In this document: in pieces, positions 4,758 through 64,000 of the stretch
Layout of the letters: every line of letters starts with the position of its first letter
Numbering within the stretch: the stretch's first letter is position 1
DNA from: Minisyncoccota bacterium
GTDB taxonomy: Bacteria > Patescibacteriota > Minisyncoccia > Phycocordibacterales > SBAW01
Length of the DNA stretch: 64,000 nucleotides
Assembly (NCBI GenBank): GCA_035546615.1
Contig: DASZWM010000005.1
Location: 40,959 to 104,958, forward strand
Direction: 5' to 3'
Program-made: the position numbers and the translations under genes
Notes under the pieces: generated by a model
Seen by the model: only the letters and a program-made list of their open reading frames with translations
The model's database searches: none
What the model was told of the DNA's origin: nothing

Positions 4758-7700
4758 GTGAGCTTCAAGTGCTTGAAGAAATATTTTTTTCTCCTTCCGC
4801 TGCTTGTTTTTATAGGTCCTGCGCCCTTTGTCATGGCCGCCCCCACGTTTCAAGTGGGGCCGATTTACCTCACTACGACAAGCGCGTCAAACCAAACCTG
4901 GCCCGTGCCTTCTGACTGGAACAATGCGAGCAACATCGTGCAGGTTATTGCGGCTGGAGGAGGCGGGGGCGGAGTCGCCAGCAACACGACGGGGAGCGGC
5001 GGGGGCGGCGGGGGCGGCGGATATTCAAAATCGACAAATATTACCCTTTCCGGTTCATCGGTAACGTATCGTCTTGCGCCCGGCGGCGCCGGCGGAGGAT
5101 CGTCGGCTGCGGTTGCCGGAGGCGATGCATGGTTTAACGGCACCACATGCGCGGCTGCCTCCGTCTGCGCGAAAGGCGGAGGGGCAGGGGGCGCAGGCAC
5201 AGGCGGAGGGGGAGGCGCCGCGGGCGCAGGCGGGCCGGCTACAGGAGGAGTCGCGTCAGGCACCGGCTCAATAAAAAATAACGGCGGCGCAGGCGGGGCA
5301 GGCACAGGTGTTTCCGCCGGCGGCGGAGGGGGCGGCGCGGGCGGCCCAAACGCCGCCGGCGGGACTGGCAATCGCACCAATGGCGGGCAAGGGGACGGCA
5401 CTGCAGGCGGCGCCGGCGGGATGACAAGCCTCATCAGGGCCGCGTCTGCTGGAAGCCCAGGAACTGAATTTTCATCCTCGCCCGCGTACGGGTCCGGCGG
5501 CGGCGGCGGAGGTTCTAGATACGCAGCGGACGCGGCAGCGGGAGGCACGTACGGCGCGGGCGGCGGCGGAGCTTTTGCTGCCTCCTCCGGTACCCTCCGC
5601 CGCGGAGGAGCCGGCGCTCCCGGGCTTATTGTGATTAATTACAGCGCACCTCTTACCGTTTCCATTACCGCGCCGACCAACAGCGGCAACGCATGTATTG
5701 GCACGCCCGGTGCATTTACCATCAGCCGCAACGGGCCGGCAACTTGGCCTGCAGTGCCGGTTGATCTTATATACGGCGGAAGCGGGAGCACCGCGGCTGC
5801 GGGGATAGACTACTCCGCTGCTGCGACAACGGTCACCATACCGGCAAATACCATGTCTATAACGCTTCCCATTACCGCGCTTCAAAAAACATCGGGCGGC
5901 AGCACTACGCTCAAGGCGACCATAGCCGCATCCTCGGCCTATTCCGTCGGTACGCCAGCGAGCGCCACAATAGTTATTAACAATGGGACTCCGGCGATTG
6001 AGACAGTCGCCCCCTACACGATCGCTCCTTTTGCTGCTTACCCATTGCCCTACAATGGCTACATTTATCACCAAAATGGCGGTTCCGGCTACACTAATCC
6101 ATTTGCCACTCCCGCAAGCATTCTTAATACATGGATCAGCAATAGCCCTTCGCCCCAACTATGCGGCGCCAACGGCGGTACGGCCGGTATATCGCTTCCT
6201 AGTGACACGGCACAGGGCGTATGCATGGGTCCTAATTTCTCCGGCACTGTAGCAGGCACCCGGGTTGCGGTCCTGCAGGCGGTAGCGCAGACTGCAGGCA
6301 TTCCTCCGGTTAATGTCGGCCTCGATCTCACGAATGTCAAAAAAACAAATCCTTGCAACACTTCAACAACGCACTGGGCGTACGCTACTGCGCCGACACA
6401 AAATACGCCCGCCGCGACGCTTAAGGTCCCTAAATACACACCGGTCCAGTTCTCTTATCAATGTTTGCCGAACCAGAATTATGTTTGGTTTAACGCCGCA
6501 TGCCAAGGCGCTTACATTATTAGCTGCCTTAGCTGGACGCTTGTTACCGATGGCGACCTCAATGTCCAGACAGCGGATCGAGCGTGGTACAAGGGCACTG
6601 AAACGGCGAACCTTATCGACAGTTCTACGCAGACATTCAGCAATTCGCAGAGCGTTACGCTCCAATGCGGCGGCTATCAGCCTCAAGAAGGGATTCCCGC
6701 AAACGGCGGTTCTCCGCCAGCTGCATCCTCCGGCACTGCTCCTACTGGAGGCAGCTACACGGTATACGGTATGCAGAATCCTTCCTATCGGCAGCCGCAA
6801 ATACAAGTTGACGTACAGACATGCTCGGATCCTACCGCTATCGTACAGGGCGGTGCGTGCGTTCCGTGCAATACGGTAACTTCGGGCAGTTATCGTTCGG
6901 GTAATACCTGCGTCTTGTATCCGCCCCCGACGGCGACTATCCAAGCCAATAACGCCGGTTTTCAAGCGGCAGACAGCAGCGGCAACAAGAACGGAAAATT
7001 AGTTTCAGTTGGGGCGGGACAGCAAGTAACTGTAGCCGCCACGTATGCTGGCAGTACCAATCAAACTCAAAAAACCGTCTTTATTACTGCCGCAGGTTCT
7101 GGCGTATGGACCGTGCCAAGCGATTGGAACAGCGCCAATAACAGCATCGAGGTTATAGGCGGCGGCGGCACGGCGGCTTTTACGGGAGGCCGAGGCGGCG
7201 GGGGCGGCGGCGGCGCGTATTCAAAAAAGACTAATATTTCCCTCACGCCTGGCGCGCCTGTGACATATAGGGTGGGTCAAGGTGCGGCCCAAGGGAGTCC
7301 GGCCGCTCCGGGTGACGATACTTTTTTTAACCGGACCGCCGGTTCCTCAAATACCTGCGCCGATACGGTTTCGGTATGTGCCAAGGGCGGAAACAGCGGC
7401 AATGGCAACAATGGTGGAGCTGGAGGCGCTGCGAGTGGCGGCGTCGGCACTGTTAAATATTCGGGGGGCGCCGGCGCTTACGGCGATAATAACAATTCCG
7501 GCAACGGCGGCGGCGCAGGAGGTCCCAACGGGAATGGTCAAGCGGGAGACAGTGGCGGCGCAGGGGATGCGGGGCTTGGCGGCGCGGGCAGCGGTTGTGG
7601 CAACCCACCTGCGGCTGGGGGGAATGGTGCCGAGTGGATTGCTACCAATGTGTGGAGTGGCACTGCATACACGGGCGCAACGCCGACGGGCGGCTCCGGC

Positions 7701-10587: not shown

Positions 10588-10675
10588 TGGCGGAGGGGGT
10601 GAGATTCGAACTCACGGTACCTTGCGGTACTCTTGTTTTCAAGACAAGTGCACTCGGCCTCTATGCGACCCCTCC
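10588..10675 (-). tRNA. tRNA-Ser (anticodon TGA), CCA encoded
   Basis: 88-nt class-II tRNA: acceptor ggagggg/cccctcc, anticodon stem cttgt/acaag with loop ctTGAaa, long variable arm taccgcaaggtacc, T-arm gtgag-ttcgaat-ctcac, 3' gCCA encoded. Confidence 0.8.
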
Positions 10676-11155
10676 CTGGCGATTTTGTATCTTACCACTG
10701 TACCAGTTATTTTCTAGGTAATGTTCCTCTGAGTGACAATTTGGACAAAGTAGTTCCAGGTTATCCAGCGTATTGTGTTGCCGGTTTCTGTCTTTGTGAT
10801 GTACGTTTAATATCTCATACCTTGCATATCCGCATCGTTCGCAAATGGGGCCTCGCAGTTTCAACAGACGAAGTTTCAAGCCTCGCTGGTATACAACTTT
10901 GTCCTTAGGCGCTCGACCTTTGTATTTTATTCCTGCACGGTTGGTATTGGCGCAGCCTCTGCTACATGTATTTTTGTTTGCACTAGAGAGAATAGGTTTA
11001 CCGCAGACAACACAAGGGTGTTCTTTTCGAGTAGCTAGTCCATAACAGGTTTGACTGCAAAATACTCGACCTTGTTTAATTTGACCCGGTCGTCTATAGA
11101 TTGGTTTGCCACAAACTGTGCATGCAGTATTGGGATTTCTTTTATACTCATCCAC
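10661..11155 (-). CDS. HNH endonuclease with Cys4 zinc-ribbon motifs
   Basis: 164-aa ORF; HNH motif NVHHKDRNRQHNTLDNLELLCPNCHSEEH plus three CxxC pairs. AT-rich; the 3' end overlaps the tRNA-Ser 5' end by ~15 nt. Confidence 0.75.
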   Translation of the reverse strand: MDEYKRNPNTACTVCGKPIYRRPGQIKQGRVFCSQTCYGLATRKEHPCVVCGKPILSSANKNTCSRGCANTNRAGIKYKGRAPKDKVVYQRGLKLRLLKLRGPICERCGYARYEILNVHHKDRNRQHNTLDNLELLCPNCHSEEHYLENNWYSGKIQNRQGGVA

Positions 11156-13682: not shown

Positions 13683-14354
13683 ATGGAAGGTCCTGCCAAA
13701 CCCAGTAACAACACTAAGGAAAGCTCTCCTAAGCCTTCTGTTGAAGTTGAATCAGAGTTTGCCGAATTCGTGCCACAGGACTTCCTTAATGACCCTGTAG
13801 GATATTTTGAACGTGGAGGAAAGAATATAAAAACAGGAGAAGTTAAATATGATGAGGCTGGTGCGCTTCGTGAGGATCCAACTGCTGTAAAAGATTTACC
13901 AGTCTGGACGAATAGCAATGGAATAGAAATTCTTACGGTAGGAAGAAGGGTAAATACGATTAAGGGCGCTGTAGGAGAATCAGGAGATCCTTTCTACGAG
14001 TACAAAATCCTTGAGAAGCTTATGGAAATCGGGTTACCCGCTGCGAGGCCTATTGCGAAAGCAGAACAGGGCGGTACTCATATCATTGTCATGGAGCGTA
14101 TTCCGGGGGTTAGGTGGTCTGAAAGAGAAAGTCTGAATCTCAAAGAAAAAGGATACTCTGACGAAGACATTGCAACTCTAATAAGTGAAGCAGAACAGAA
14201 AATGGATGGCCTGAAAACTCGCTTTGACGAAGCGGGAGTTATTCGCAGTTGGAAACTGAAGGATATGGTATTTGAGATAGACATTGAGAATAAGAAAGTT
14301 ATTTCTATAGTCCCCACAGATTGGGAAAGGACGAAGATTATTGAAAAGCAATAG
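13683..14354 (+). CDS. Hypothetical protein, possible small atypical protein-kinase-like fold
   Basis: 223-aa ORF in an AT-rich stretch; motifs in kinase order (EYKILEKLMEIGLPAARPI, hinge-like HIIVMERIPG, then DMVFEIDIENKKVISIVPTDWE) resemble RIO/Kdo-type kinases; weak. Confidence 0.3.
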   Translation: MEGPAKPSNNTKESSPKPSVEVESEFAEFVPQDFLNDPVGYFERGGKNIKTGEVKYDEAGALREDPTAVKDLPVWTNSNGIEILTVGRRVNTIKGAVGESGDPFYEYKILEKLMEIGLPAARPIAKAEQGGTHIIVMERIPGVRWSERESLNLKEKGYSDEDIATLISEAEQKMDGLKTRFDEAGVIRSWKLKDMVFEIDIENKKVISIVPTDWERTKIIEKQ

Positions 14355-20086: not shown

Positions 20087-20776
20087 ATGCCTGACATAAA
20101 AAAGTTCGAGCTTTCTCCCTCGATAGCCATACTCGTGTGCGGCGTGCTCATCGCCGGCTCGATTATTTTCGTGAATCTCCATCCCGGCCAGCCCGCGGTT
20201 GCCGCAGACCCGAATCAGCTTCCGGCGAATGCCAACGTGCCGGCGCCGAACGCCAACGACCACATCCGCGGCTCATTGAGCGCGCCCATTGTGCTGGTCG
20301 AGTATTCGGACTTCCAATGTCCGTATTGCCAGATGGTGCATCCGACGCTCAAGCGCCTTGTGGACGAATCCAACGGCAAGATAGCGTGGGTATACCGCGA
20401 GTATCCGCTCACGAGTCTCCACCCGCAGGCCCGCCCCGCAGCGCTCGCCGCCGAATGCATCGAGGAGCAGCTCGGCAATGACGGGTTCTGGAAGTTCGCC
20501 GACACCATATTCGCCGACCAGACCAAAATGAGCCCCGAGTACTATGCCCAGCTTGCCGCGCAGTTCGGCGCGGACCCGGCGCAGTTCGCCTCGTGCGTCT
20601 CGAGCGAGAAATATGCGGGGAAGATAGCGTCGCAGTCGCTTGAGGCGCAAAGCAACGGCGGCAACGGCACGCCGTTCACGGTCATCGTGGGTGCAGGCGT
20701 GCAGGTGCCGGTGTCGGGCGCGCAGCCGTACGAGAACTTCAAGGCTGTAATAGACGCGATGCTCGCGCGTCAGTAA
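20087..20776 (+). CDS. DsbA-family thiol:disulfide oxidoreductase (membrane-anchored)
   Basis: 229-aa ORF; N-terminal TM; thioredoxin-fold CPYC active site in VEYSDFQCPYCQ. Confidence 0.8.
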   Translation: MPDIKKFELSPSIAILVCGVLIAGSIIFVNLHPGQPAVAADPNQLPANANVPAPNANDHIRGSLSAPIVLVEYSDFQCPYCQMVHPTLKRLVDESNGKIAWVYREYPLTSLHPQARPAALAAECIEEQLGNDGFWKFADTIFADQTKMSPEYYAQLAAQFGADPAQFASCVSSEKYAGKIASQSLEAQSNGGNGTPFTVIVGAGVQVPVSGAQPYENFKAVIDAMLARQ

Positions 20777-20819: not shown

Positions 20820-21662
20820 ATGAACGGCTTGTTTGAGGGTTCTCAGGGCGTGTGGCTTAGGCGCGCCATTATCGCGTCGGTAGCATTGCTTGCTTTGTTC
20901 CTGGCGGTCCAGGTCATCGCCGGCGTTAAGGAATGGCGCTACATAGGCGCTGGGCTTTCCGCCACCAACACCATTACCGTATCCGGCCACGGCGAGGCGC
21001 TCGCGGTGCCCGACATTGCAACGTTCTCGTTCTCGGTCGTCTCCGACAAGGCGACGGTCGCCGCCGCGCAGGAAGACGCGACTGCAAAGATCAACGCAAT
21101 AACCGCGTATCTTAAGGATGCGGGCATCGACGAGAAGGATATCCAGACCAGCGACTACTCGGTCTATCCGCAGTACGAATACCAGAACGCGGTATGTCCC
21201 ACCGTCGCGCCGACCTATTCGGGAGCTTCGGCAAGCGCTATCTACTGCCCGTCCGGCAAGCAGGTGCTCAAGGGCTACGAGGTGCGCCAGACCACCGCTA
21301 TCAAGGTGCGCGATACCGAGAAGGCGGGCGATCTCCTCTCCGGCGTAGGAACCAAGGGCGCCACCGAGGTTTCGGGCCTGACATTCACGTTCGACAAGCC
21401 CGATATGGTTCAGGATGAGGCCCGCGATAAGGCTATCCAGAACGCGAAGGAGAAGGCGGATACGCTCGCGAAGTCCCTCGGCGTCCACCTGGTGCGCGTC
21501 GTCTCCTACAACGAGAACGGCAACTACTCGCCGATGTACGCCCGCGACGTGGCGTACGGCAGCGCAGGCCTCGCCAACGAAACCAAGGCTGCCGCTCCGG
21601 AGATCTCCATAGGCCAGAACAAGGTCACCTCGGATGTCGCGGTAACCTACGAGATTAGGTAA
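20820..21662 (+). CDS. SIMPL-domain protein (DUF541/BP26-like)
   Basis: 280-aa ORF; N-terminal TM; the rest fits the SIMPL/BP26 family (assignment from recall, not a motif match). Confidence 0.65.
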   Translation: MNGLFEGSQGVWLRRAIIASVALLALFLAVQVIAGVKEWRYIGAGLSATNTITVSGHGEALAVPDIATFSFSVVSDKATVAAAQEDATAKINAITAYLKDAGIDEKDIQTSDYSVYPQYEYQNAVCPTVAPTYSGASASAIYCPSGKQVLKGYEVRQTTAIKVRDTEKAGDLLSGVGTKGATEVSGLTFTFDKPDMVQDEARDKAIQNAKEKADTLAKSLGVHLVRVVSYNENGNYSPMYARDVAYGSAGLANETKAAAPEISIGQNKVTSDVAVTYEIR

Positions 21663-21807
21663 GCCTATGCAGAGCTAGGTAAGCCTAGGGTTGACTCCAG
21701 CCTTAAATAGGGTAGTATAAGAAAAAGCCCCGGGAGGGGTTTTTTCTTAGGCAACCGTCTTGCCTGTCGGCAGACAGGGAAGACGGAAAGTTAAATAGAA
21801 CTAAATT

Positions 21808-21978
21808 ATGCCCCAATACTTTAAAGACGTCCGCAGCGAGCTGAACCATGTAAGCTGGCCCACGCGCAGTCAGATAATCGCGTATACCGTCGTGGTCATT
21901 CTCGTGTCGCTCGGCACGTCCGTGTACCTCGGGCTTCTGGACTACGTCTTCTCCGCGATTATCCGCAGCGTTGTTTAG
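21808..21978 (+). CDS. secE: Preprotein translocase subunit SecE
   Basis: 56-aa ORF below the ORF-track cutoff: MPQYFKDVRSELNHVSWPTRSQIIAYTVVVILVSLGTSVYLGLLDYVFSAIIRSVV, single TM; immediately upstream of nusG in the conserved secE-nusG-rplK order. Confidence 0.8.
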   Translation: MPQYFKDVRSELNHVSWPTRSQIIAYTVVVILVSLGTSVYLGLLDYVFSAIIRSVV

Positions 21979-22039
21979 TAATTAGCTACTTGGGTGTAGC
22001 CACTAGTCGCTATACCCCAAACCCTAACACCTAACTAAT

Positions 22040-22591
22040 ATGGCAAAACAAGATGCAAGCGTCGGAAGGGCATGGTACGCGATACACACGTACGCGGGCT
22101 ACGAGAACGCGGTCGCGCGCAACCTGCGCCAGCGCATCGAGAGCCTCGGCCTCACCGATAAGATATTCCAGGTGGTCGTGCCGACCGAGCGCACGGTAAA
22201 GATAAAGGGCGGCAAGCGCGTGGAGGAAGAGGAGAAGGTGTATCCGGGCTACGTGCTCGTCGAGATGACCGTGGACGACCAGTCATGGTACGTGGTGCGC
22301 AATACGCCCCGCGTGACCGGCTTCGTGGGCTCCGGCGTCAATCCGGTCCCGCTCCAGCAGAAGGAAGTGGACGAGCTCTTGGGCCGCATGCAGGCGACCG
22401 AAGGCTCCATCAAGCACGCCATCGACCTTTCGGTGGGCGACTCGGTCGTCATCGTGGACGGTCCGTTCAAAGAGCTCGACGGCAAGGTGGGCGAGGTGGA
22501 CGAGGCCCGCGGCAAGGTGAAGGTTCTCGTGCCGATGTTCGGCCGCGAGACGCCGGTGGAACTCGACTTCCTTCAAATTAAGCGTATATAG
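22040..22591 (+). CDS. nusG: Transcription antitermination factor NusG
   Basis: 183-aa ORF; NGN domain (WYAIHTYAGYENAV) and C-terminal KOW (GDSVVIVDGPFKELDGKVGEVD). Confidence 0.9.
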   Translation: MAKQDASVGRAWYAIHTYAGYENAVARNLRQRIESLGLTDKIFQVVVPTERTVKIKGGKRVEEEEKVYPGYVLVEMTVDDQSWYVVRNTPRVTGFVGSGVNPVPLQQKEVDELLGRMQATEGSIKHAIDLSVGDSVVIVDGPFKELDGKVGEVDEARGKVKVLVPMFGRETPVELDFLQIKRI

Positions 22592-22631
22592 CCAAAAACA
22601 ATAAACTAAGGTATTCTCTTAATCTCGATAT

Positions 22632-23054
22632 ATGGCAAAGAAAATCGTTAAAAAGATAAAGATCATCGCGAACGGCGGCGCCGCGGCGATGACCCCTGCC
22701 ATGGGCCAGGTGCTCGGCCCGGCCGGCATCAACATCGGCGAATTCATCAAGAAGTTCAACGACGCATCCAAGGAGATGCGCGGCGACATGGTACCGGCAG
22801 AGATCTCCGTCTACGAGGACCGCTCATACGATTTCATCCTCAAAACCCCGCCGGTATCGAGCCTCATCCTTAAGGCCCTCGGCAAGGAGAAGGGGAGCGG
22901 CAAGCCCAATACCCAGAAGGTAGGCGCGCTCACGAAGGCCCAGGTAAAGGAAATCGCAGAGAAGAAGATGCCCGACCTCAATGCCCACGACCTCGACCAG
23001 GCAATGAAGACCGTCGCCGGCTCCGCCCGGAGCATGGGCGTTGATATGAAGTAA
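22632..23054 (+). CDS. rplK: 50S ribosomal protein L11
   Basis: 140-aa ORF; uL11 signatures PAMGQVLGPAGINIGEF, ISVYEDRSYDFILKTPP. Confidence 0.9.
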   Translation: MAKKIVKKIKIIANGGAAAMTPAMGQVLGPAGINIGEFIKKFNDASKEMRGDMVPAEISVYEDRSYDFILKTPPVSSLILKALGKEKGSGKPNTQKVGALTKAQVKEIAEKKMPDLNAHDLDQAMKTVAGSARSMGVDMK

Positions 23055-23081
23055 GATAATTGGTAACTTTCAACCCACCTT

Positions 23082-23111
23082 GCCTGTTTTCTTTAGGGAA
23101 CAGGCATTTTT
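23082..23111 (+). terminator. Rho-independent terminator directly after rplK
   Basis: Hairpin gcctgtt-ttctttagggaa-caggc followed by attttt; sits where rplA normally follows. Confidence 0.6.
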
Positions 23112-23135
23112 GGTTCTTCGACAAGGAGGCATATC

Positions 23136-23549
23136 ATGCTGGAAGAAGGGAAGACTTTTGTTACTTTTGCGCAGATCCATTTTTCTACTCAAGGAGGCGG
23201 TCAGCTCAATCTTGCGGAGATTGAGGAAAAATTCCGTGCCATCCTCGCAGAAGAACCCTCTCGTTGGGAAGTGGAGTGGTTAAGGGCAGAAGACGCTACC
23301 GCAGGCGGCCTGCGCATGTCTTTCGCGCTTACAGATGCGGCGATCCTCTACTTCGGTTGTCGTTCCGGTAGCGAGCGCGATATTTCCATCCAGGAAATAT
23401 CATGTCTCATGGATTGGGTTGGGAGTATAACTAAGAAATTCTCCGAAGCCGAGTTCAAGTTTGGACTGCCGGTATTCGTGAGCGGTGGAGTCCAACTCAA
23501 CAGCAGCACAGGCGCTTACGCAACTAAAGCTTTTTCTGCCACCATATAG
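23136..23549 (+). CDS. Hypothetical protein
   Basis: 137-aa ORF with an aaggagg RBS 7 nt upstream; no recognisable motifs; followed by a terminator hairpin at 23564-23596. Confidence 0.45.
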   Translation: MLEEGKTFVTFAQIHFSTQGGGQLNLAEIEEKFRAILAEEPSRWEVEWLRAEDATAGGLRMSFALTDAAILYFGCRSGSERDISIQEISCLMDWVGSITKKFSEAEFKFGLPVFVSGGVQLNSSTGAYATKAFSATI

Positions 23550-23658
23550 GGATCTAAGAAAAAGCCCGGCGCCAAAGGTGCCGGGTACTGCTTTTCATTT
23601 GGAACGGCAAGGAGTACTCTGGGCGTCAGAGATCCTTTCGGCTAGCACAGGAGTTCCC

Positions 23659-24363
23659 ATGAAGCCCAACGTCTCTCTTCCTACCTGGATTCAGGACTTG
23701 ATGGTGACGTGGGTCCGGCCCCAAGTCACTCTCCGCAAAGTGGTGCGGTGGAGCAAATACCGCAAGCGCGGCACGCGCCGCCAAGACACGCTCCAGCACA
23801 CGCTCTCGCTTCTCTTGTTCGCAACGTGGGCGTTCCCGCTTTTCAGGCCCCATGTGCGGTTCGACGAATCGCTGCTCTTCCGTACCCTTTTGCTCCACGA
23901 CTTCGGGGAGGGGGAAACGCAGAAGGGCGACACCCTTTACATCGACAAGACGCGCGGCGGCGACCTGGCGGAAACCGCGGCGTTCATGGAACGGTTCGGC
24001 ATCGTTATCGGCCAGGAAGGCACTAAGGCCTTTCTTCTCCAGTTCGCGAAAAACGCGAACCAGATGGGCGAATTCAGAAGCATTCTGCAGGGGATTAAGA
24101 AGAAATACCCCGTCGAATGCCTGCTGTTCGACGCCCTGGAGCGCTTCGACTACTTTCTCTACGCTCTCGAGCAGTATCGGGAACTTGGGAAGGCGAAGAT
24201 CCTGGTGCAGGTGTTGCGCCATCAGATACCGCACTTCGAGCGTCTGTCACGCGAGCTGCCCGGCTTCAAACAGGTGCTCTGGCGGCCCGACTTGGCCGGC
24301 TGGTGCTCGCTGTTCCTCAGCCGCTACGACGGTCAGTGGATCGAGCAGAAGGGCGAAAAGTGA
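23659..24363 (+). CDS. HD-domain phosphohydrolase (YfbR-like) (putative)
   Basis: The ORF track gives 23485-24363, but that start overlaps the upstream ORF and the terminator; the likely start is MKPNVSL at 23659 with an aggag RBS; HD motif in LLLHDFGEGETQKGD. Confidence 0.45.
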   Translation: MKPNVSLPTWIQDLMVTWVRPQVTLRKVVRWSKYRKRGTRRQDTLQHTLSLLLFATWAFPLFRPHVRFDESLLFRTLLLHDFGEGETQKGDTLYIDKTRGGDLAETAAFMERFGIVIGQEGTKAFLLQFAKNANQMGEFRSILQGIKKKYPVECLLFDALERFDYFLYALEQYRELGKAKILVQVLRHQIPHFERLSRELPGFKQVLWRPDLAGWCSLFLSRYDGQWIEQKGEK

Positions 24364-24366
24364 ACC

Positions 24367-24408
24367 AATATCGCCCGTCCCGGAACCCGGGACGGGCGAT
24401 ATTTTTTA
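24367..24408. terminator. Bidirectional terminator between convergent genes
   Basis: 16-bp perfect hairpin atatcgcccgtcccgg-aac-ccgggacgggcgatat followed by tttttt. Confidence 0.75.
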
Positions 24409-26520
24409 GACGGCTGCAACAGGATTTCTTTCGACGATATCCTGGGTGCCGCGCTTGTAGTTGAAGCGGTCTTCGCTTGAGTCTATGTGGAGTATTAATC
24501 CTTCGCTCTTCAATTCCCGAAGCATAAGCGCGCCGATGTTCTGGGAAATAACGCGGAGCGTTGGATGTACGGAAATGCCCGAACGCAGCTCGACGACAAA
24601 GGCTAGCGCGGGCAGGTCGCCGGTAATGCGGCAGGCAACCTGGTATCCCATCGGGACATAATACTGGGCTAGGGTAGGGGACAGATTCAGCCTCTCGAGG
24701 CCTGCAACGTAGCGGGCGAGAAAAGCTTTCGCCTCGTCCGCGAGCTGTTGCGGTACCTGGCTGAAGTACCATTCGCCGAACCCGTGCTTCGTCGTCAGAA
24801 GCGGCATCCGCTGGGTGATGGAACGATGCCGGTGCAGGTCGCGGAACGAGCCGAAGTCGAGCGGAAACGAGAACTGCATCCCTCCGGCTTCCGCAAGGAA
24901 TTTCGGCAGCTCCGCTTTTGCGGGGCGGCTGTCCAGGATATGGCGATGCTTCTGGAGCAGTCGCGGTTCCACGGTATTCCGCAGCAGAAGAACATTTCCG
25001 TATCCGGCCTTCGAGCCATTAAGGGTCGGTTCTGCTTCAGCGGAATAGTAGTACGCATTCTGCATCCACTCTTCGACGTATTCTTCCTGTGCAGAGTAGC
25101 GCTTAGCGAAGCCGGAATTCGGATACTTCTCCATTAGCGCTTCGCCCACCGCATTTGCGATATCGCGCACTTCTGCAAGCGGATGATGGCGCAGGCGCAG
25201 GAGATGGTCGGAAGCGTGCCGCAGCTCGGTATGCCACGCGAGGTTCGTTGCGGCGCCGGCAGGCAGGAATCCCCGCATGATATCGAACGCGCGGGCATTG
25301 ATGGCCTTCTGCCAAACCTTCTCGTCCTCATCAGTTTGGCGCGGATGGCGCTTGGCGAGCTCTTCCTTCATGGTTTCGAGCCCATTCAGATGGAATGCGC
25401 GCAGCGATTCAAGGAGCTCTGCGCCCTCTGGGGAGTTGTGCGGATTGCCGAACGCCTGTTTGGAGAAGTCGATGTAACGAGTCGAGGATTCCTGCCCATT
25501 GTAGAGCTGGGAGTCTTGTACCGCTTTCGCCGCGAGCATCGACACTCCTTCTATAAAGATGGTCGCCGTGCCGTCATCGCCGATGGATTTGTCGCCGTAA
25601 CCGACATAGTAGGTCTGCATGAAATCTTGGGCGCCCCGCTTGGCAAGCCTGATCAGGTGCGCATCTATGCCGCCCAGGGAGCGCGAATGAAGTGCTTGAA
25701 GCATTGCATCTTCCTCAGCATTGATGATAGCGCCGGTGTCGAGTACGACTACCTGCCCGTTTCCTGGGAGCGGCTTGCGTACGTGTTTCAGGTCTTCGTA
25801 TTTTGTAGCAGTTCCTTTTTGTACTTGTTCCTGCGCGGGTGCGGCGCGTTGTCCGATGTCGCGATCAAGGTAGAGGCGGGGGAGCATCTGCTCAGGGGTC
25901 CAGCTGCTTTTTACCTCTTCAAGGTTCGTGCTGACCTGATATTTGCCGCTCTTGGTGTAATCGGACTGTAGAATAGGCCCGGTCTCGAAGAAGATGATCT
26001 GCGCGATGCGGCGGCCGACCACAAGCGGAATGATGTAATTCTTGGAGTTGTTGGTTATCTCCATCGTCCAGCGGTTGACGTATCCGACGTCGCCCCAGCC
26101 GGCACATTTGCACACTTCTATGAAGTTGCGGCCCATGCTTGAGCGCGCCTTCATCATCGTCGTGATATGGTCGCGCCCGCCGATGAACTCGTTCGTATGC
26201 GCGAGGATGGTTTCGCCGGGCCGCAGGATGATGACCTTGTCCTCCGGGCTGATGCCGTCCCACTCAAAGTTATATTTTTCGAACGCTTCCTTCGCGGGTA
26301 CCGCCCGCTCCACCTTAGAGGCGCCCCACACATGCTCCATGTGCGCGCGGCTCCAGATGTTGTAGAGGCTGTGATTGTACTTGGTCGGCTGCTCGCGGAA
26401 GAAATGCTCCCCGAGCGTCACGTCGTAGGAAGAAGTGGCAAGATTTTCCCGCTTGAACGGCTCTATAATGACGGAGCCTTCCTGCATCGCTTCGAGGATT
26501 TTCTTGTCCGATAGTGCCAT
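24406..26520 (-). CDS. Fusion protein: dCTP deaminase-like domain + two tandem ThyX (flavin-dependent thymidylate synthase) domains
   Basis: 704-aa ORF. Residues 1-190 are Dcd/dUTPase-fold (LSDKKILEAMQEGSVIIEP; KARSSMGRNFIEV...GWGDVGYVNRWTMEITNNS). Residues ~230-480 are ThyX-like and keep the S.RY motif (ESSTRYIDF) but have QDSQ in place of RHR. Residues ~480-704 are ThyX-like with the RHR motif (FRDLHRHRSITQ) but no S.RY. Both halves keep the ThyX C-terminal helix pattern (AR..LP....T..W..N.R.L.HFL.LR). Confidence 0.6.
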   Translation of the reverse strand: MALSDKKILEAMQEGSVIIEPFKRENLATSSYDVTLGEHFFREQPTKYNHSLYNIWSRAHMEHVWGASKVERAVPAKEAFEKYNFEWDGISPEDKVIILRPGETILAHTNEFIGGRDHITTMMKARSSMGRNFIEVCKCAGWGDVGYVNRWTMEITNNSKNYIIPLVVGRRIAQIIFFETGPILQSDYTKSGKYQVSTNLEEVKSSWTPEQMLPRLYLDRDIGQRAAPAQEQVQKGTATKYEDLKHVRKPLPGNGQVVVLDTGAIINAEEDAMLQALHSRSLGGIDAHLIRLAKRGAQDFMQTYYVGYGDKSIGDDGTATIFIEGVSMLAAKAVQDSQLYNGQESSTRYIDFSKQAFGNPHNSPEGAELLESLRAFHLNGLETMKEELAKRHPRQTDEDEKVWQKAINARAFDIMRGFLPAGAATNLAWHTELRHASDHLLRLRHHPLAEVRDIANAVGEALMEKYPNSGFAKRYSAQEEYVEEWMQNAYYYSAEAEPTLNGSKAGYGNVLLLRNTVEPRLLQKHRHILDSRPAKAELPKFLAEAGGMQFSFPLDFGSFRDLHRHRSITQRMPLLTTKHGFGEWYFSQVPQQLADEAKAFLARYVAGLERLNLSPTLAQYYVPMGYQVACRITGDLPALAFVVELRSGISVHPTLRVISQNIGALMLRELKSEGLILHIDSSEDRFNYKRGTQDIVERNPVAAV

Positions 26521-26570: not shown

Positions 26571-26650
26571 TGATTATATAATTGCGAAGCAATTCTATAC
26601 GGTATAGTGTGTTTCGGGAGTACTATACCACTGTGGAGAGGGGAACAAGT

Positions 26651-27289
26651 ATGGACAAACGCGGAAAATTTATCGTAATTGACGGCATGGACGGCTCCGG
26701 CAAGGGGACGCAGATAAAACTGCTCCAGGAGCGGCTTGCGGACAAGGGCGTGCTCTTCACTCGGGAGCCGGGCGGCTCGCCGCTTGGAGAGGAGATCCGG
26801 GAGATATTATTGAGGACCGAAGGAAATTCGCGCGGCCCGTTAGCGGACCTCTTTCTCTTCTTCGCGTCGCGGGCGTCGCATGTGGAGGATACCGTTACGC
26901 CGGCGCGCGAGCGCGGTACGCACGTCATAAGCGACCGGTACGCTTCCTCTACCTACGCCTTCCAGGCCTACGGGGAAGAGAAGCGCGAATTGCTGCCGCT
27001 TTTTGATGCGGTCATGCATTCGCTCGACCGGGCGAAGTACTGGCCGGACCTCTATCTCATCCTCGACCTTCCCGGCGAAATGGCCTACGAGCGCAGAAGG
27101 AAGGATGCCGCGCAGGCGAAAAGCGGTTTTGATCTCAAGCCGCTCGCATACCATGAGCGCACGCGAGAAGGCTTTAAGGCGTTCGCCAAAAGCTACGGTC
27201 CGGTCGAATTTGTCGACGCGAGCCGTAGCCCTCAGGAAATCCATGCCGATATCTGGAACATTGTCGCTCCCATGGTAGGATTTAAATAA
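26651..27289 (+). CDS. tmk: Thymidylate kinase
   Basis: P-loop FIVIDGMDGSGKGTQ, DRY-like SDRYASSTYAFQ; the start is chosen at MDKRGKF inside the longer listed ORF. Confidence 0.85.
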   Translation: MDKRGKFIVIDGMDGSGKGTQIKLLQERLADKGVLFTREPGGSPLGEEIREILLRTEGNSRGPLADLFLFFASRASHVEDTVTPARERGTHVISDRYASSTYAFQAYGEEKRELLPLFDAVMHSLDRAKYWPDLYLILDLPGEMAYERRRKDAAQAKSGFDLKPLAYHERTREGFKAFAKSYGPVEFVDASRSPQEIHADIWNIVAPMVGFK

Positions 27290-27339: not shown

Positions 27340-28608
27340 ATGGATCTCTACGACGCTATACAAAAACAGGATAAGGACGTCTTCGCCACGCTTGAGGGCG
27401 AGGAAACGCGCGAGCGGGAAGGGCTTGAGCTCATTCCTTCCGAGAATTACGTTTCAAAAGCGGTGCGCCAGGCGCAGGGCTCGATATTCACCAACAAATA
27501 TTCCGAAGGATATCCCGGAAAGCGCTACTACGGCGGACAGACGTACACCGACCAGGTTGAGACGATAGCTATCGAGCGCGCCAAGCAATTGTTCGGCGCC
27601 AAATTCGCCAACGTGCAGACGCACTCGGGCGCCAACGCCAACATCGCGATGTACATGGCCTTGCTGCAGCCGGGGGACACGGTACTGGGTATGGATCTCA
27701 GCCACGGCGGGCATCTGACCCATGGCCACCCGGTTACCTATATCACCAAGTTCTTCAACTTTGTGCGCTATAAGATGAAGGACCCGGAAACCGGTGAGAT
27801 AGATTACGACGACATGCGGCGGGTGGCGCTTGAGGCCAAACCCAAGATAGTGCTGGCCGGATACTCGGCGTACTCCCGCGAGCTCGACTACGAAAAGATT
27901 TCTGCAATAGCAAAAGAGGTCGGCGCGTACGCGGTCATGGATGCGGCGCATATCGCGGGCCTTATTGCCGGCGGCGTTGCGAAAAATCCGTTCGACTACG
28001 GCTTCGATATCATTACTTCAACTACGCATAAGACTTTGCGCGGCCCTCGCGGCGGGCTCATCCTGACGCGCGAGTCCGAAGACATTGCCAAAAAAGTGGA
28101 CAAGGCGGTGTTTCCGGGTCTCCAAGGCGGCCCCTTGATGCACGTGATAGCGGGAAAGGCGGTCGCCTTCGGCGAGGCGCTTTCTCCGAAGTTCAAAGTG
28201 TATGCGGCGCAGATACTCAAGAACGCCAAAGCGATGGAAGAAGTATTTCGTGCTGCCAATGTGCGCATGCTCGGCGGCGGCACATCTAACCACCTTATTC
28301 TCGCCGATGTGTTCGGCAGCCTCGGCATCCCCGGGAAAGAAGCGGAAGTTTTGCTCGACCGCGTGGGCATCACGCTTAACAAGAATGTCATCGCAGATGA
28401 CACGAGGAACCCCATGGACCCGTCCGGCATTCGCTTCGGCACACCGGCCATAACGACGCGCGGGTTCAAGGAAGGGGAGTCCGCCCGCGTAGCCGAGCTT
28501 ATGCTTGAGGCTATGAAGAATCGCACTGATGAAGCGAAGCTCGACGCTATCCGCGAGGAGATAAAGGACCTCTGCGCGAAATTCCCGATTCCGGACTCGT
28601 TCGTATAA
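27340..28608 (+). CDS. glyA: Serine hydroxymethyltransferase
   Basis: 422-aa ORF; SHMT motifs LELIPSENY, YSEGYPGKRYYGG, PLP-Lys region TTHKTLRGPRGG. Confidence 0.9.
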   Translation: MDLYDAIQKQDKDVFATLEGEETREREGLELIPSENYVSKAVRQAQGSIFTNKYSEGYPGKRYYGGQTYTDQVETIAIERAKQLFGAKFANVQTHSGANANIAMYMALLQPGDTVLGMDLSHGGHLTHGHPVTYITKFFNFVRYKMKDPETGEIDYDDMRRVALEAKPKIVLAGYSAYSRELDYEKISAIAKEVGAYAVMDAAHIAGLIAGGVAKNPFDYGFDIITSTTHKTLRGPRGGLILTRESEDIAKKVDKAVFPGLQGGPLMHVIAGKAVAFGEALSPKFKVYAAQILKNAKAMEEVFRAANVRMLGGGTSNHLILADVFGSLGIPGKEAEVLLDRVGITLNKNVIADDTRNPMDPSGIRFGTPAITTRGFKEGESARVAELMLEAMKNRTDEAKLDAIREEIKDLCAKFPIPDSFV

Positions 28609-32465: not shown

Positions 32466-33068
32466 ATGAAAATACTTGGCCGAGGCTGGCAATATACTAC
32501 CTACGATATAGGAAATGGTCGCGTGCTTAAAAAGTATAATTCGTTCCTAGTAGCTTATGCGGTAATGCTCAATGCCTGTGTCAAATCAGATAGGCTTTCG
32601 ATTTTTAAAATTCCGCAATACCACAGAGGCTGTAAAGAATTTGCACGAAGCTCTCTAAAGAAAGCGACCAGTGGCCTGCTTGATAGTTGGATGGTTGGCA
32701 ATCCAAAGCCGCTAAATGAATTGGATTACGAACAAGACAAGCTCATTCCGCTCCATGAACGCATCAACGGAATTAGTTTAGAAAAGGCAAAAGGGTATAT
32801 TGACCGTTTTGTTGATTTCAATAAAACTCTTTTGGAGAGAGGTCTCATCGACAAAAGTTTTAATATTACTAAGAACTTCGGCATAGATTCCGAAGGAAGG
32901 ATTGTTTTGATGGATCTTGGTGAATTGCACTCAGAAAAGCTAGCTATAGAAAAACAACGACGTAAACGGATGTGGACGTACCCATATGTAGTAAATTGCA
33001 TCTTAGATGAGGAAGTACGTGCCTACTATGTTCAGCGGATGGACGAAAGCTTTGGATTAGCCGCATAG
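32466..33068 (+). CDS. Hypothetical protein, small atypical protein-kinase-like (AT-rich islet)
   Basis: 200-aa ORF, markedly AT-richer than neighbours; Gly-loop-like LGRGWQYTTYDIGNGRVLKK, catalytic-loop-like LIDKSFNITKNFGID, DFG-like RIVLMDLGE. Confidence 0.35.
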   Translation: MKILGRGWQYTTYDIGNGRVLKKYNSFLVAYAVMLNACVKSDRLSIFKIPQYHRGCKEFARSSLKKATSGLLDSWMVGNPKPLNELDYEQDKLIPLHERINGISLEKAKGYIDRFVDFNKTLLERGLIDKSFNITKNFGIDSEGRIVLMDLGELHSEKLAIEKQRRKRMWTYPYVVNCILDEEVRAYYVQRMDESFGLAA

Positions 33069-43083: not shown

Positions 43084-43641
43084 ATGAGAATTTGTATTTT
43101 CGGCGATAGTATCACTTGGGGAGAGGGAGATAAGGAAATCGGCGGATGGGCTGATCGTCTAAAGGTCCATTTAATGGAACGGGATTTTAGCGTTTACAAT
43201 CTTGGAATTAGAGGGGACACAAGCGCTGGCGTTTTAGATCGGTTCAAACAAGAAATTGCTGCACGCAGCCGAAAGCTGGGAGGTATCTTGTTCGCGATAG
43301 GAATTAACGATTGCCTTCAGGGAGTTTCCGTAGAAGAGTTCCAGAATAATATGCGAACCCTTATGGAGCTATCTCCGGAGTTTGCGGACACAACTATAAT
43401 GATAGGCCTAACAAGAACCACGGATACCTCGGCCAATGAAAAGATAGAGCAATTTAATAAGGAGCTGGAGGTCCTCTGCAGAGAAAGAAAAGTTTTGTTT
43501 ATTCCCATGTTCGACCTTTTCGCAACAGATGATTTAACGAAAGACGGTCTCCATCCGAGTCCGACTGGCTACAAGAAGATGTTCGAGCGTATCAAACTTG
43601 TTCTAGAACCGCTTCTGCCTGTAATGACTGTCGACCAATGA
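43084..43641 (+). CDS. SGNH/GDSL-family hydrolase
   Basis: 185-aa ORF, AT-rich; block I GDSIT, block III GINDCL, block V DGLHPS. Confidence 0.7.
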   Translation: MRICIFGDSITWGEGDKEIGGWADRLKVHLMERDFSVYNLGIRGDTSAGVLDRFKQEIAARSRKLGGILFAIGINDCLQGVSVEEFQNNMRTLMELSPEFADTTIMIGLTRTTDTSANEKIEQFNKELEVLCRERKVLFIPMFDLFATDDLTKDGLHPSPTGYKKMFERIKLVLEPLLPVMTVDQ

Positions 43642-45890: not shown

Positions 45891-46460
45891 TTATTTTTTG
45901 TCGACGCGCTCCACGTACTGGCCGAGCTCGGTGTTGACGCGGACAATATCACCCTCGTTTATAAAGAGGGGGGCCTGCACCGTGGCGCCGGTCTCAAGTG
46001 TTATCTCTTTCGTGCCGCCTTGGGAGGTGTTGCCGCGCACTGCCGGCGGGGCGTCCTTCACGACGAGTTCCACCTTGATCGGCACGCGCACCGCGATAAT
46101 ATTGTCGTCGAATACGAGGGCCTCGAGTACGGAGTTGGGCTTCAAAAACTGCCCGGCCGGTCCGATGGTTTCCTCCGGAAGCTTGAACCGGTCGGCGGGA
46201 TTCTTCACGTCGCTGAACCACCATTCGCCGCGGTTGGTATAGAGGTATTTCACATCGCGGGTGGAAAGGTCGGCTTCCTCTGCTTTTTCAGACACGTGGA
46301 AGGCCTGTTCGGTCACCTTGCCGGTGATAAGGTGGCGCAGCTTCGTCTGGTTCACCGGCTTGCGCTGCTGCTTGCGGAAGACGTGCGCATCCAGGACTTC
46401 GTACGGCTGGCCATCCATTAGGATGACCTTTTTGGGCAAAATCTCGTTATATTCAAGCAT
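45891..46460 (-). CDS. efp: Elongation factor P
   Basis: 189-aa ORF; KOW-like N-domain and two OB domains; matches EF-P throughout (e.g., GQFLKPNSVLEALVFDDNIIAVRVP). Confidence 0.9.
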   Translation of the reverse strand: MLEYNEILPKKVILMDGQPYEVLDAHVFRKQQRKPVNQTKLRHLITGKVTEQAFHVSEKAEEADLSTRDVKYLYTNRGEWWFSDVKNPADRFKLPEETIGPAGQFLKPNSVLEALVFDDNIIAVRVPIKVELVVKDAPPAVRGNTSQGGTKEITLETGATVQAPLFINEGDIVRVNTELGQYVERVDKK

Positions 46461-55682: not shown

Positions 55683-56021
55683 ATGCTGTCTTCTTTCATT
55701 TGGTTTTTAGTTCCAACTGGGATTGCTTATATTATTGCCTATTGGATTTGTCAGAAAGTCGGAATCTTCCTTTATCGTCATTTACATAAATTTTCCTTGG
55801 CAGCACTTGGTACTATATTTTTATTCCTCATCACATTTCCTATTTTAATGGTAAATGGATGGTCCGTATCGGAAGCCATTATAGAAACGCGAGAGGGTAA
55901 CGATGCAGTGATTATCAGTTTGCTTGTTGGAGGGACTCCCACCCTTCTTGTTGCATGTGTCCTATTGATAACCGGCATAATCCTTTTATTGCGGATGCTA
56001 TATAAAATCCGTATAATCTAG
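55683..56021 (+). CDS. Hypothetical small membrane protein (AT-rich islet)
   Basis: 112-aa ORF with 3-4 TM helices; AT-rich. Confidence 0.4.
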   Translation: MLSSFIWFLVPTGIAYIIAYWICQKVGIFLYRHLHKFSLAALGTIFLFLITFPILMVNGWSVSEAIIETREGNDAVIISLLVGGTPTLLVACVLLITGIILLLRMLYKIRII

Positions 56022-56079
56022 CATCGCGCTTTAAGTTTTTTGACAATCAGTAAAGATTAGCGTAAAAAGCAGTATTAAC

Positions 56080-56685
56080 ATGAAGACATTTTTAATAAAA
56101 GTGGGGAAGATAGCTGCTTGGACGTTCGGCGTCCTGGTTGTCTTATTTATCGCCCTGGTCATATATCGCATTCCAGCGGTAGGCCAGAAAGAAAAGGCAG
56201 CGGAGGCCGTAACGCGCATCCATGCGGCGGAACTCACACTCGATACGGTAATGGGGAATCGTTTGCCGCTCCCGCCCAATGAGGAGGAAAATAACGCGAC
56301 GGTCGCGGGGATAGATAACAACGGAAACGGAATCCGCGACGACGTGGAGCTCGCAATATTCGCCAAGTACCCGAACTCCGCTAAGATTCGCGCAGCGGAA
56401 CTGCAATATGCCCTAGCCCTCCAGCTAATGATTACGGAAGTTTTTGACAAAGAGACTTGGATTGCAGCTGCTGAGATGCTTTCTCGTGGAGATGCATGTA
56501 TTGGACTTACAGTTCCTAATACTGACTTAACTACATACCTAAAAAGGTCAAAAGAAGTTGAGGATACCGTGCTTAATATTAGTATTCGTAAGAATGCAGA
56601 AGATGAGGCCTATAATTTTATAACAAGCTACGGTCTTCCGAATACTGATTTGTGCGATGTTGACTTAAATACACTTTCAGGTTAA
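56080..56685 (+). CDS. Hypothetical membrane-anchored protein
   Basis: 201-aa ORF; N-terminal TM anchor; AT-rich; no family motif. Confidence 0.45.
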   Translation: MKTFLIKVGKIAAWTFGVLVVLFIALVIYRIPAVGQKEKAAEAVTRIHAAELTLDTVMGNRLPLPPNEEENNATVAGIDNNGNGIRDDVELAIFAKYPNSAKIRAAELQYALALQLMITEVFDKETWIAAAEMLSRGDACIGLTVPNTDLTTYLKRSKEVEDTVLNISIRKNAEDEAYNFITSYGLPNTDLCDVDLNTLSG

Positions 56686-56699
56686 ATTCACCCCGTTTT

Positions 56700-58508: not shown

Positions 58509-58539
58509 TTGACAGAATTAGTTTCCTAAAGTATCTTAT

Positions 58540-58640
58540 TCCTTAAGGGCCAGAGACAGAGGGTAGGCGAAAGCCGTTAATGCCGAGAGGCGCCTTCCGA
58601 GGTCGAACTACGCCCTTACCTGGGGCTTTTTTAATGCCTC
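58540..58640 (+). promoter_or_regulatory. Putative rplJ (L10) autoregulatory leader / attenuator
   Basis: Structured GC-rich segment (gggccagagacagagggtaggcgaaagccgttaatgccgagaggcgcc...cctggggctttttt) directly upstream of rplJ, ending in a hairpin plus U-run. Confidence 0.35.
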
Positions 58641-58658
58641 AGTAAACCATCTACAAAA

Positions 58659-59147
58659 ATGGCAATTACAAAACAGAAGAAAGTGGAGATAGTCGCGAAG
58701 GTGAGCGACATCGCGAAGAAGGCGAAGACCCTGGTTTTTGCCAACTTTAAGGGTCTCACCGTGGCGGAACAGAACGAGATGCGCAAGGCGCTCCGCGCTA
58801 AGAGCGTCGGCTACACCGTAGCCAAGAAGTCGCTCCTCGCAATCGGCCTTAAGGACGGAAAGTTCGAAGGCGAAATGCCCGCGCTTGAAGGCGAGGTAGC
58901 CTTTGCCTATGGCGAAGACGAGCTCGCGCCCGCGCGCGAGATAGCGGTGTTCGTGAAGAAATTCGGCGAGCACCTGGCGTTCGCAGGCGGCATGTTTGCG
59001 GGCAAGTTCGTCGGCAAGGACGAGATTACGTCCATTGCGGCTATTCCCGGCATGGAGACGCTTCGCGCTCAGTTCGTACAGCTTATCAACTCACCTCTCC
59101 AGCGCTTTGCGGTTGTCCTCAACGCAAAAGCTGAGAAACAAGGATAA
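58659..59147 (+). CDS. rplJ: 50S ribosomal protein L10
   Basis: 162-aa ORF; uL10 pattern (KKVEIV..., LVFANFKGLTVAEQNEMRKALR, FAGGMFAGKF). Confidence 0.85.
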   Translation: MAITKQKKVEIVAKVSDIAKKAKTLVFANFKGLTVAEQNEMRKALRAKSVGYTVAKKSLLAIGLKDGKFEGEMPALEGEVAFAYGEDELAPAREIAVFVKKFGEHLAFAGGMFAGKFVGKDEITSIAAIPGMETLRAQFVQLINSPLQRFAVVLNAKAEKQG

Positions 59148-59214: not shown

Positions 59215-59658
59215 ATGGCAGATGAAACGACAGTAGAGGCTCCGGCAGCGGCAGCTCCGGCGGCGGAAGAGAAGAAGGAAGGCGCGGCGATGCCCGCGAA
59301 GTTCAAGGACCTCGTCAGCTCGGTAGAGAAGATGTCGGTGCTTGAGCTCCACGAGCTCGTGAAGGCGCTCGAGGCCCACTGGGGCGTCTCGGCGGCGGCA
59401 GTAGCCGTGGCAGGTCCGGCTGCAGGCGTGGCAGCGGGCGAGGAGAAGACCTCGTTCAACGTGCAGCTTGCCGACGCGGGCGCACAGAAGGTGCAGGTCA
59501 TCAAGGCGGTCAAGGACGCTTTGGGCCTGGGCCTCAAGGAGGCGAAGGACCTCGTTGACGCGGCTCCGACCATGCTTAAGGAGGGCCTTAAGAAGGAGGA
59601 GGCAGACAAGCTTAAGGCGGCCGTTGAGGCAGCCGGCGGCAAGGTTGAGCTCAAATAA
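59215..59658 (+). CDS. rplL: 50S ribosomal protein L7/L12 (N-terminally extended)
   Basis: 147-aa ORF; dimerisation helix [21 protein letters not shown], flexible Ala/Gly hinge, C-terminal domain [24 protein letters not shown]...GGKVELK. Confidence 0.85.

Positions 59659-62842: not shown

Positions 62843-64000
<1,158 letters not shown>

Follow-up and report, generated by a model that had tools for sequence, protein, structure and literature searches.

Absence of rplA after rplK in a Parcubacteria contig whose L11 block ends at a predicted terminator beside a thymidylate/folate cluster

The rplK block and its downstream boundary

The window analysed here is a 64,000-nt (64-kb) stretch of contig DASZWM010000005.1 (assembly GCA_035546615.1, positions 40,959 to 104,958), and its subject is the region downstream of rplK, the gene for ribosomal protein uL11, where rplA, the gene for uL1, is missing. 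On the plus strand, a DsbA-like gene (20087-20776) and a SIMPL gene (20820-21662), both recognised by Pfam, precede secE (21808-21978; Pfam SecE, E=2e-18), nusG (22040-22591; Pfam NusG, E=2e-29, with a weak match to KOW), and rplK (22632-23054; Pfam Ribosomal_L11_N and Ribosomal_L11, E=1e-20 to 1e-29), which is the last gene of the ribosomal block. The Pfam matches to all three ribosomal-block genes agree with an initial annotation, made from the sequence letters, in which secE-nusG-rplK was described as intact. The rplK product is 94% identical to its best relative, and a -10-like TATTCT box lies 14 nt 5' of the gene, as one also does in the related locus L003. Beyond rplK come a terminator-like hairpin, an orphan gene of 137 codons (ORF137, for open reading frame), a 234-codon gene of an HD-domain phosphohydrolase family (HD234), and genes of thymidylate synthesis.

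The region was compared with 85 related loci, about 80 of them from species-level relatives; 80 loci came from an L11 scan in which each GTDB species was represented by one genome. The closest L11 matches, at 83-94% identity, come from records labelled Parcubacteria, Paceibacterota, Adlerbacteria, or Kaiserbacteria, and the more distant ones from Zambryskibacteria, Taylorbacteria, and Nomurabacteria. The NCBI records of ORF137 and HD234 (VHD55_02495/02500) carry the name 'Candidatus Paceibacterota bacterium' (metagenome-assembled genome, MAG; TPA). Judged by its L11 matches and the names of its protein records, the window belongs to a Paceibacteria (Parcubacteria) MAG. The upstream order DsbA-SIMPL-secE-nusG-rplK is kept throughout the related loci, and none of the 85 has rplA, rplJ, or rplL within 6 kb downstream of rplK. 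What does follow rplK is variable in distance and order and is drawn from DHFR, ThyA or ThyX, dCTP deaminase (DCD), Tmk, SHMT, and a DUF2914 protein, with SHMT downstream in most relatives. Clade-wide, rplK abuts a thymidylate/folate cluster with a variable junction between the two.

That rplA is absent after rplK, as the initial annotation had claimed, was confirmed by tblastn, a hidden Markov model (HMM), and Pfam, none of which found uL1 in the window. The best tblastn match to E. coli L1 had an E-value of 2.5. An L1 HMM, made with three bacterial L1 sequences, scored at most 8 bits against all six-frame translations of 30 aa or longer in the window and the 85 related loci; as a positive control, an archaeal L1 scored 89.8 bits (E=5e-26). 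Pfam recognised Ribosomal_L1 in neither ORF137 nor HD234, nor among the 20 window ORFs that are 180-270 aa long. The possibility that either ORF137 or HD234 is a diverged L1 was rejected by the HMM, by Pfam, and by the distribution of the two genes.

The remaining genes of the classical cluster were located elsewhere in the window. Both rplJ (58659-59147; Pfam Ribosomal_L10) and rplL (59215-59658; Pfam Ribosomal_L12_N and Ribosomal_L12) are on the plus strand, 35.6 kb downstream of rplK, and rplA was not found beside them by Pfam either. The initial annotation had placed this pair 35 kb away with a leader of its own; the distance stands, and the leader amounts to an L10-leader-like element upstream of rplJ (58532..58641, plus strand), which matches Rfam RF00557 over the full model length with 27.3 bits (E=0.012), below the gathering score of 44 bits.

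Directly after rplK lies a hairpin with a T-run (23081..23114, plus strand), comprising an 11-pair stem at 23081-23106 followed by TTTTTGG. It begins 27 nt past the rplK stop and has a predicted folding energy of -18.7 kcal/mol (z=-1.9). Terminator-like sites are not in excess in this part of the window, with 4 observed at 21600-24600 as compared to 3.7 expected from shuffles, so the terminator call depends on the position of the hairpin and the comparison with relatives, and not on the number of sites. A hairpin plus T-run was found within 130 nt of the rplK stop at 64 of the 85 related loci, with a free energy (dG) of -12 or below in 49; inside the rplK coding region, which served as the control, the corresponding numbers were 24 of 85 and 2. 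A GC-containing hairpin and U-tract just past the stop are as predicted for an intrinsic (rho-independent) terminator, and the claim that one directly follows rplK is upheld by this predicted hairpin and its enrichment among relatives. Throughout the clade, then, rplK is the gene with which its unit ends.

HD234, ORF137, and the variable junction

HD234 (23659..24363, plus strand) encodes a putative YfbR/OxsA-like HD-domain phosphohydrolase of 234 aa linked to thymidylate genes. Translation most plausibly begins at the ATG at 23659, which AGGAG precedes by six bases; the mechanically assigned GTG at 23485 was rejected, as the ORF would then overlap ORF137 and a hairpin. Taken alone, HD234 matches Pfam HD_3 with E=5e-3 and 17.2 bits, under the cutoff of 22.5. 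At the level of the family, 52 homologs were found, several of which carry precomputed PF01966 or PF13023 matches, and in a 46-sequence alignment H47, H80, and E161 are invariant and D81 and D164 nearly so. Searched against PDB, the family profile retrieved 1xx7 (E=3e-5), 2cqz, 3kh1, and OxsA (5tk6), with E-values from 3e-5 to 1e-2. The description of the two genes past the terminator as a 137-aa hypothetical and an HD-domain hydrolase is therefore sound, the HD assignment being weak for the single sequence and holding for the family. Family members are Paceibacterota where the sources name them, and the GC content at third codon positions (GC3) of HD234, 0.81, is typical of native genes.

Thymidylate genes adjoin the HD234 homolog in eight of nine distinct contexts examined outside the window. 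The homologs in L082 and L083 (76% identical to HD234) come directly after rplK and are followed by ThyX, DCD, Tmk, and SHMT; those in L084 and L085 (74%) come after rplK and a folate gamma-glutamate ligase (TIGR04132-like) and before DHFR, ThyA, and DCD; and the order in L100 (57%) is rplK, HD, DHFR, CYTH, DCD, ThyA, SHMT. More distant homologs in L022 and L059 (28-31%), encoded on the opposite strand, are likewise flanked by rplK and thymidylate genes. The homolog in L099 (40%) is unlinked to rplK, yet it is convergent with ThyX, and the one in L098 (41%) has no thymidylate gene nearby. These contexts tie HD234 to thymidylate synthesis rather than to the ribosomal operon. The most likely function of its product is that of a metal-dependent (deoxy)nucleotide phosphohydrolase like YfbR and OxsA, with a predicted role beside DCD, ThyX, Tmk, and SHMT in pyrimidine deoxynucleotide metabolism. 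The enzyme could supply deoxyuridine monophosphate (dUMP) from the tri- or diphosphate (dUTP or dUDP), or trim pools of deoxynucleoside monophosphates (dNMP).

The region just upstream of the HD gene (23597..23658, plus strand) holds a -10-like TACTCT box, a leader of about 40 nt, and the AGGAG motif. About 60 nt 5' of the gene align among the window, L082, and L084 whatever the preceding gene is, with the box reading TACTCT or TAGTCT, and this conservation suggests that the HD gene has its own promoter. HD234 appears to be transcribed from this promoter-like element, with a leader that bears a Shine-Dalgarno (SD) motif. A conserved structured RNA was also considered for the leader and discarded, since it is kept in three close relatives only and is absent in more distant homologs; Rfam matches at the leader were sub-threshold chance matches.

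Downstream of HD234, a strong bidirectional terminator (24367..24403; 17-pair stem, -33.2 kcal/mol, z=-7.8) separates it from a convergent 704-aa dCTP deaminase-ThyX fusion on the minus strand (24406..26520), in which Pfam DCD covers residues 3-179 and Thy1 residues 301-468 and NCBIfam recognises dCTP_deam and thyX. The linker of the fusion is about 100 residues long, and L082 has DCD and ThyX as two adjacent genes 35 nt apart. The single ORF could be a real bifunctional enzyme or the product of a lost stop codon; its sequence is identical in a Logan contig. The cluster continues on the plus strand with thymidylate kinase (26582..27289; Pfam Thymidylate_kin, E=2.5e-35) and SHMT (27340..28608; NCBIfam SHMT, E=1e-170), the conserved anchor downstream of the variable junction.

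ORF137 (23136..23549, plus strand) is an orphan accessory gene of 137 aa that has no Pfam match and a predicted ferredoxin-like fold. In an exhaustive HMMER search, 1.84 billion representatives yielded two relatives of 137 and 141 aa, at 45-48% identity (E=1e-23 to 1e-26) and collinear over nearly the full length; ORF137 is a real gene, one of a three-member, lineage-restricted family. All three members lie 3' of rplK and 5' of folate/thymidylate genes. The order is rplK, ORF137 homolog, folate ligase, DHFR at L003, L086, and L087, and rplK, Flp-like gene, ORF137 homolog, FolB, DHFR at L088 and L089. The family has a GC3 of 0.43-0.54, as compared to 0.68-0.82 in the adjacent rplK, and an SD-like motif in all three members. 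Only about 30 nt separate the T-run of the rplK terminator from the ATG of ORF137, too few to accommodate a separate promoter, and read-through past the rplK terminator is the probable mode of ORF137 expression.

A second terminator-like hairpin (23564..23596, plus strand) follows ORF137, with a 10-pair GC-rich stem at 23564-23586 and a folding energy of -22.7 kcal/mol (z=-3.1). Compared with the L082 hairpin located straight after rplK (5906-5945), this hairpin (23564-23600) has an identical tail, GCTTTTCATTTGGA. This common tail suggests that, relative to L082, the window gained an extra terminator and ORF137 on the rplK side of the ancestral terminator and HD promoter, or else that both were lost from L082. 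At L003, a second copy of the last rplK codons, GTTGACGTAAAATAA, lies between rplK and the ORF137 homolog (6373-6575), about 75 nt past the real stop, and can be aligned to the ends of rplK in L082 and L084. It looks like a recombination scar that the arrival of an ORF137 module might have left.

An AlphaFold model of ORF137 made from the three-sequence alignment has the order beta-alpha-beta-beta-alpha-beta, with a predicted local distance difference test (pLDDT) score of 68 and a predicted template modelling (pTM) score of 0.66; the AlphaFold2 model from the single sequence was poor (pLDDT 47). In a Foldseek search with the model, two structures of the phage S-adenosylmethionine (SAM) lyase Svi3-3, 6zm9 and 6znb, ranked top. 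Comparisons by sequence gave little. ORF137 had no match in NCBIfam, in PHROGs, or in Pfam even at E<=10, nothing below 1e-3 in BFVD, only an E=1 match by tblastn against phage genomes, and only itself in a word-indexed homolog search. Alignment with the T3 SAMase by hhalign gave a probability of 0.2%, indicating no relationship, and the family profile matched YdhR (1wd6), the type of a dimeric alpha-beta barrel, marginally (E=0.019, residues 7-91). The conserved substrate-binding residues of Svi3-3 are Gly56, Tyr58, Glu69, and Gln104 (PMC7877911); the invariant G74, E87, and Q120 of ORF137 are spaced like Svi3-3 residues, but their secondary-structure register does not obviously match. The known relatives of ORF137 are flanked by rplK on one side and DHFR, FolB, or folate gamma-glutamate ligase on the other. 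Conceivably, ORF137 represents the phage SAM-lyase fold family in a cell, here a candidate phyla radiation (CPR) bacterium, being expressed by read-through from rplK and using SAM or some similar adenosyl or sulfonium molecule as its substrate, although we regard this model-based reading as unlikely. On the same doubtful reading, its action would be linked to that of the neighbouring folate, one-carbon, and thymidylate genes. The resemblance to SAM lyase is no more than a small lead.

The initial annotation had seen in ORF137 and HD234 an inserted pair of non-ribosomal genes occupying the place of rplA. Their location after rplK is as it described. The notion of an occupied rplA slot does not hold, as the HD gene belongs to the thymidylate/folate cluster, and the two do not form a pair: they are unrelated genes, one of the thymidylate cluster and the other a rare accessory in a variable junction.

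Loss of uL1 and the alternatives

The lack of uL1 has been described in a large subgroup of Parcubacteria named OD1-L1 (PMC5220378), with the original report, as cited there, being that of Brown et al. 2015. Tsurumaki et al. 2022 confirmed with complete genomes that a Parcubacteria subgroup lacks uL1 (PMC9297842). A literature search returned no paper that explicitly ties the names Adlerbacteria or Kaiserbacteria to L1. The Parcubacteria affiliation, the 85 rplA-less loci, and the two surveys together support the view that the window fits an OD1-L1-type lineage without L1. Its rplA absence is a correct recognition of this published trait, which is already known; as the initial annotation proposed, it is a useful lineage marker, though it repeats what OD1-L1 had established.

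The L1 stalk of the ribosome was also examined at the level of its rRNA. The window holds the first 1,166 nt of a 23S rRNA gene, from 62835 to its end at 64000 (model positions 1-1112). A metagenome scan with a 26-mer from this 23S returned eight contigs, among which L097 (Ga0265314_10039931) has a nearly complete 23S, 94.7% identical to that of the window over 1,166 nt. Helices 76 to 78 (H76-78) of L097 are complete (2285-2425) and carry the conserved GGUGGGAG and UGAAAUACCAC motifs, and the L1-stalk rRNA looks the same in L096, an 88% relative (1640-1780). L097 comes from the same metagenome as L085, the locus with rplK, folate ligase, and an HD234 homolog. Loss of 23S helix 78 has been found in other lineages, not necessarily those without uL1 (PMC9297842). 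Stalk rRNA kept without the protein is in line with published work, and it fits loss and relocation of rplA equally. As side observations on the rRNA gene, the 23S of the window starts without a 16S gene upstream, protein-coding ORFs reaching to about 62425; relative to the bacterial consensus it has a lineage-specific insertion of about 35 nt at approximately 63109-63145 and a second expansion near 63170-63190; and the 23S of L097 is about 350 nt longer than the model.

Very probably, the window contains the native 3' end of the secE-nusG-rplK block of a Parcubacterium (Paceibacteria) from a clade that lost uL1. The loss of rplA and the break-up of rplKAJL would then have happened in the clade's ancestor, feedback control of the L11 operon by L1, as known from the classical case, would be unable to operate in this lineage, and the ribosome would work with a protein-free L1 stalk whose H76-78 rRNA is intact in a close relative. 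Several points weigh against this interpretation or parts of it. The uL1 search in this genome covered the 64-kb window of a 104,958-bp contig, and rplA may sit elsewhere. The link of L097 to an L1-less genome is one of similarity and of origin in the same metagenome as L085. The part of 23S that binds L1 (GGGAG in H77, and UGAAAUACCAC) is fully conserved in this near relative, which would also fit L1 or a substitute still being made. The proposed enzymatic role of HD234 rests on remote homology and gene context, and any role for ORF137 rests on remote homology, context, and a medium-confidence model.

The most durable alternative is relocation, in which a normal rplA lies elsewhere in the genome, outside the window. 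It would account for the intact L1-stalk rRNA and L1-contact motifs in a 23S so close to that of the window, and the inspected part of the genome was 64 kb. It is nonetheless improbable, given that the surveys report uL1 to be absent from all members of OD1-L1, complete genomes included (PMC5220378, PMC9297842), that the junction without rplA recurs in every one of about 80 species-level relatives, and that rplJ-rplL in the window also have no rplA next to them. More remote still, and very unlikely in our estimation, is functional replacement, with ORF137 or another small protein encoded after rplK serving as a non-homologous L1 substitute on the stalk. ORF137 does lie at the rplA position on the same strand, probably co-transcribed by read-through, and the stalk rRNA is conserved; however, among 1.84 billion proteins its family has only three cluster representatives, almost none of the L1-less relatives have it downstream of rplK, its codon composition departs from that expected of ribosomal protein genes, and it has no similarity to L1. 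As the source is a MAG, assembly or binning could in principle have produced a chimeric rplK/ORF137 junction and removed rplA. This can be practically dismissed, as an independent 3.4-kb Logan contig (SRR12170516) has the same rplK-ORF137-HD-DCD/ThyX order, the thymidylate cluster comes after rplK at the 85 loci, which stem from many studies, and the flanking synteny is unbroken on both sides.

If uL1 was indeed lost, intact L1-stalk rRNA in its absence bears on how an L1-less stalk releases tRNA from the E site. The window also encodes a complete EF-P (45891-46460, minus strand) with all three domains. Work of Blaha et al. in 2009 is said to have placed EF-P next to the L1 stalk, in contact with L1 in canonical ribosomes, and its retention in an L1-less lineage is noteworthy.

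Some features of the window concern gene expression more generally. A -10-like TANNNT hexamer ends 4-12 nt 5' of the start codon in 25 of the 62 window genes, as compared to 4.95 +/- 2.1 at random positions, and its spacing to the start codon peaks sharply at 6 nt (14 genes). SD-like motifs were found at only seven of the 62 gene starts, those of ORF137 and HD234 among them. The hexamer pattern is a predicted signature of leaderless mRNAs. Such a signature fits the loss of the anti-SD motif, which overlaps the uL1-less Parcubacteria subgroup (PMC9297842); the window holds no 16S gene. Between the SIMPL gene and secE, at 21691-21750, is a sigma-70-like promoter match (TTGACT, 16 nt, TAGTAT), with a strong hairpin plus T-run directly 3' of it (-28.4 kcal/mol, z=-3.8), and this order of promoter then terminator is an odd arrangement. 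Elsewhere, genes at 10661-11155 (minus strand), 13683-14354, 32466-33068, 43084-43641, and 55683-58508 have a low GC3 of 0.36-0.50, as compared to 0.7-0.84 in most genes; they mostly have no Pfam match, one is a GDSL lipase, and they are possible recent acquisitions.

Comparison with known systems

With the canonical E. coli secE-nusG/rplKAJL-rpoBC cluster, the window shares the order secE-nusG-rplK, a promoter-like box before rplK, and an rplJL unit that resembles the one with the L10 leader in carrying an L10-leader-like element. The window differs in that rplA is missing and that rplJL lies 35.6 kb from rplK, without rpoBC after it. The L1-dependent autoregulation of the E. coli L11 operon cannot exist where there is no rplA.

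Among HD phosphohydrolases of the YfbR/OxsA type (PF13023, PF01966; 1xx7, 2cqz, 3kh1, 5tk6), the metal-binding residues H...HD...D are common to HD234, whereas the HD234 family is very divergent and about 40 residues longer than its relatives in PDB. A divergent HD phosphohydrolase family tied to thymidylate synthesis is a candidate for a missing step in CPR deoxynucleotide metabolism. ORF137 resembles the phage SAM lyase Svi3-3 (6zm9/6znb) and the SAM-AMP lyase (9gab) in size (129 aa as compared to 137 aa) and in its predicted ferredoxin-like alpha-beta sandwich; unlike them, it lies in a CPR MAG contig and not in a phage, and sequence similarity to the phage enzymes is not detectable.

The closest likeness is to the OD1-L1 Parcubacteria, with which the window shares its Parcubacteria affiliation and the lack of rplA after rplK, and from which nothing essential differs. 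The new local detail is that, in this clade, a terminator closes the L11 block and a thymidylate/folate cluster consistently lies next to it. To the existing picture of OD1-L1 are thereby added the predicted terminator after rplK, that cluster as a constant neighbour, and intact H76-78 in a near relative.

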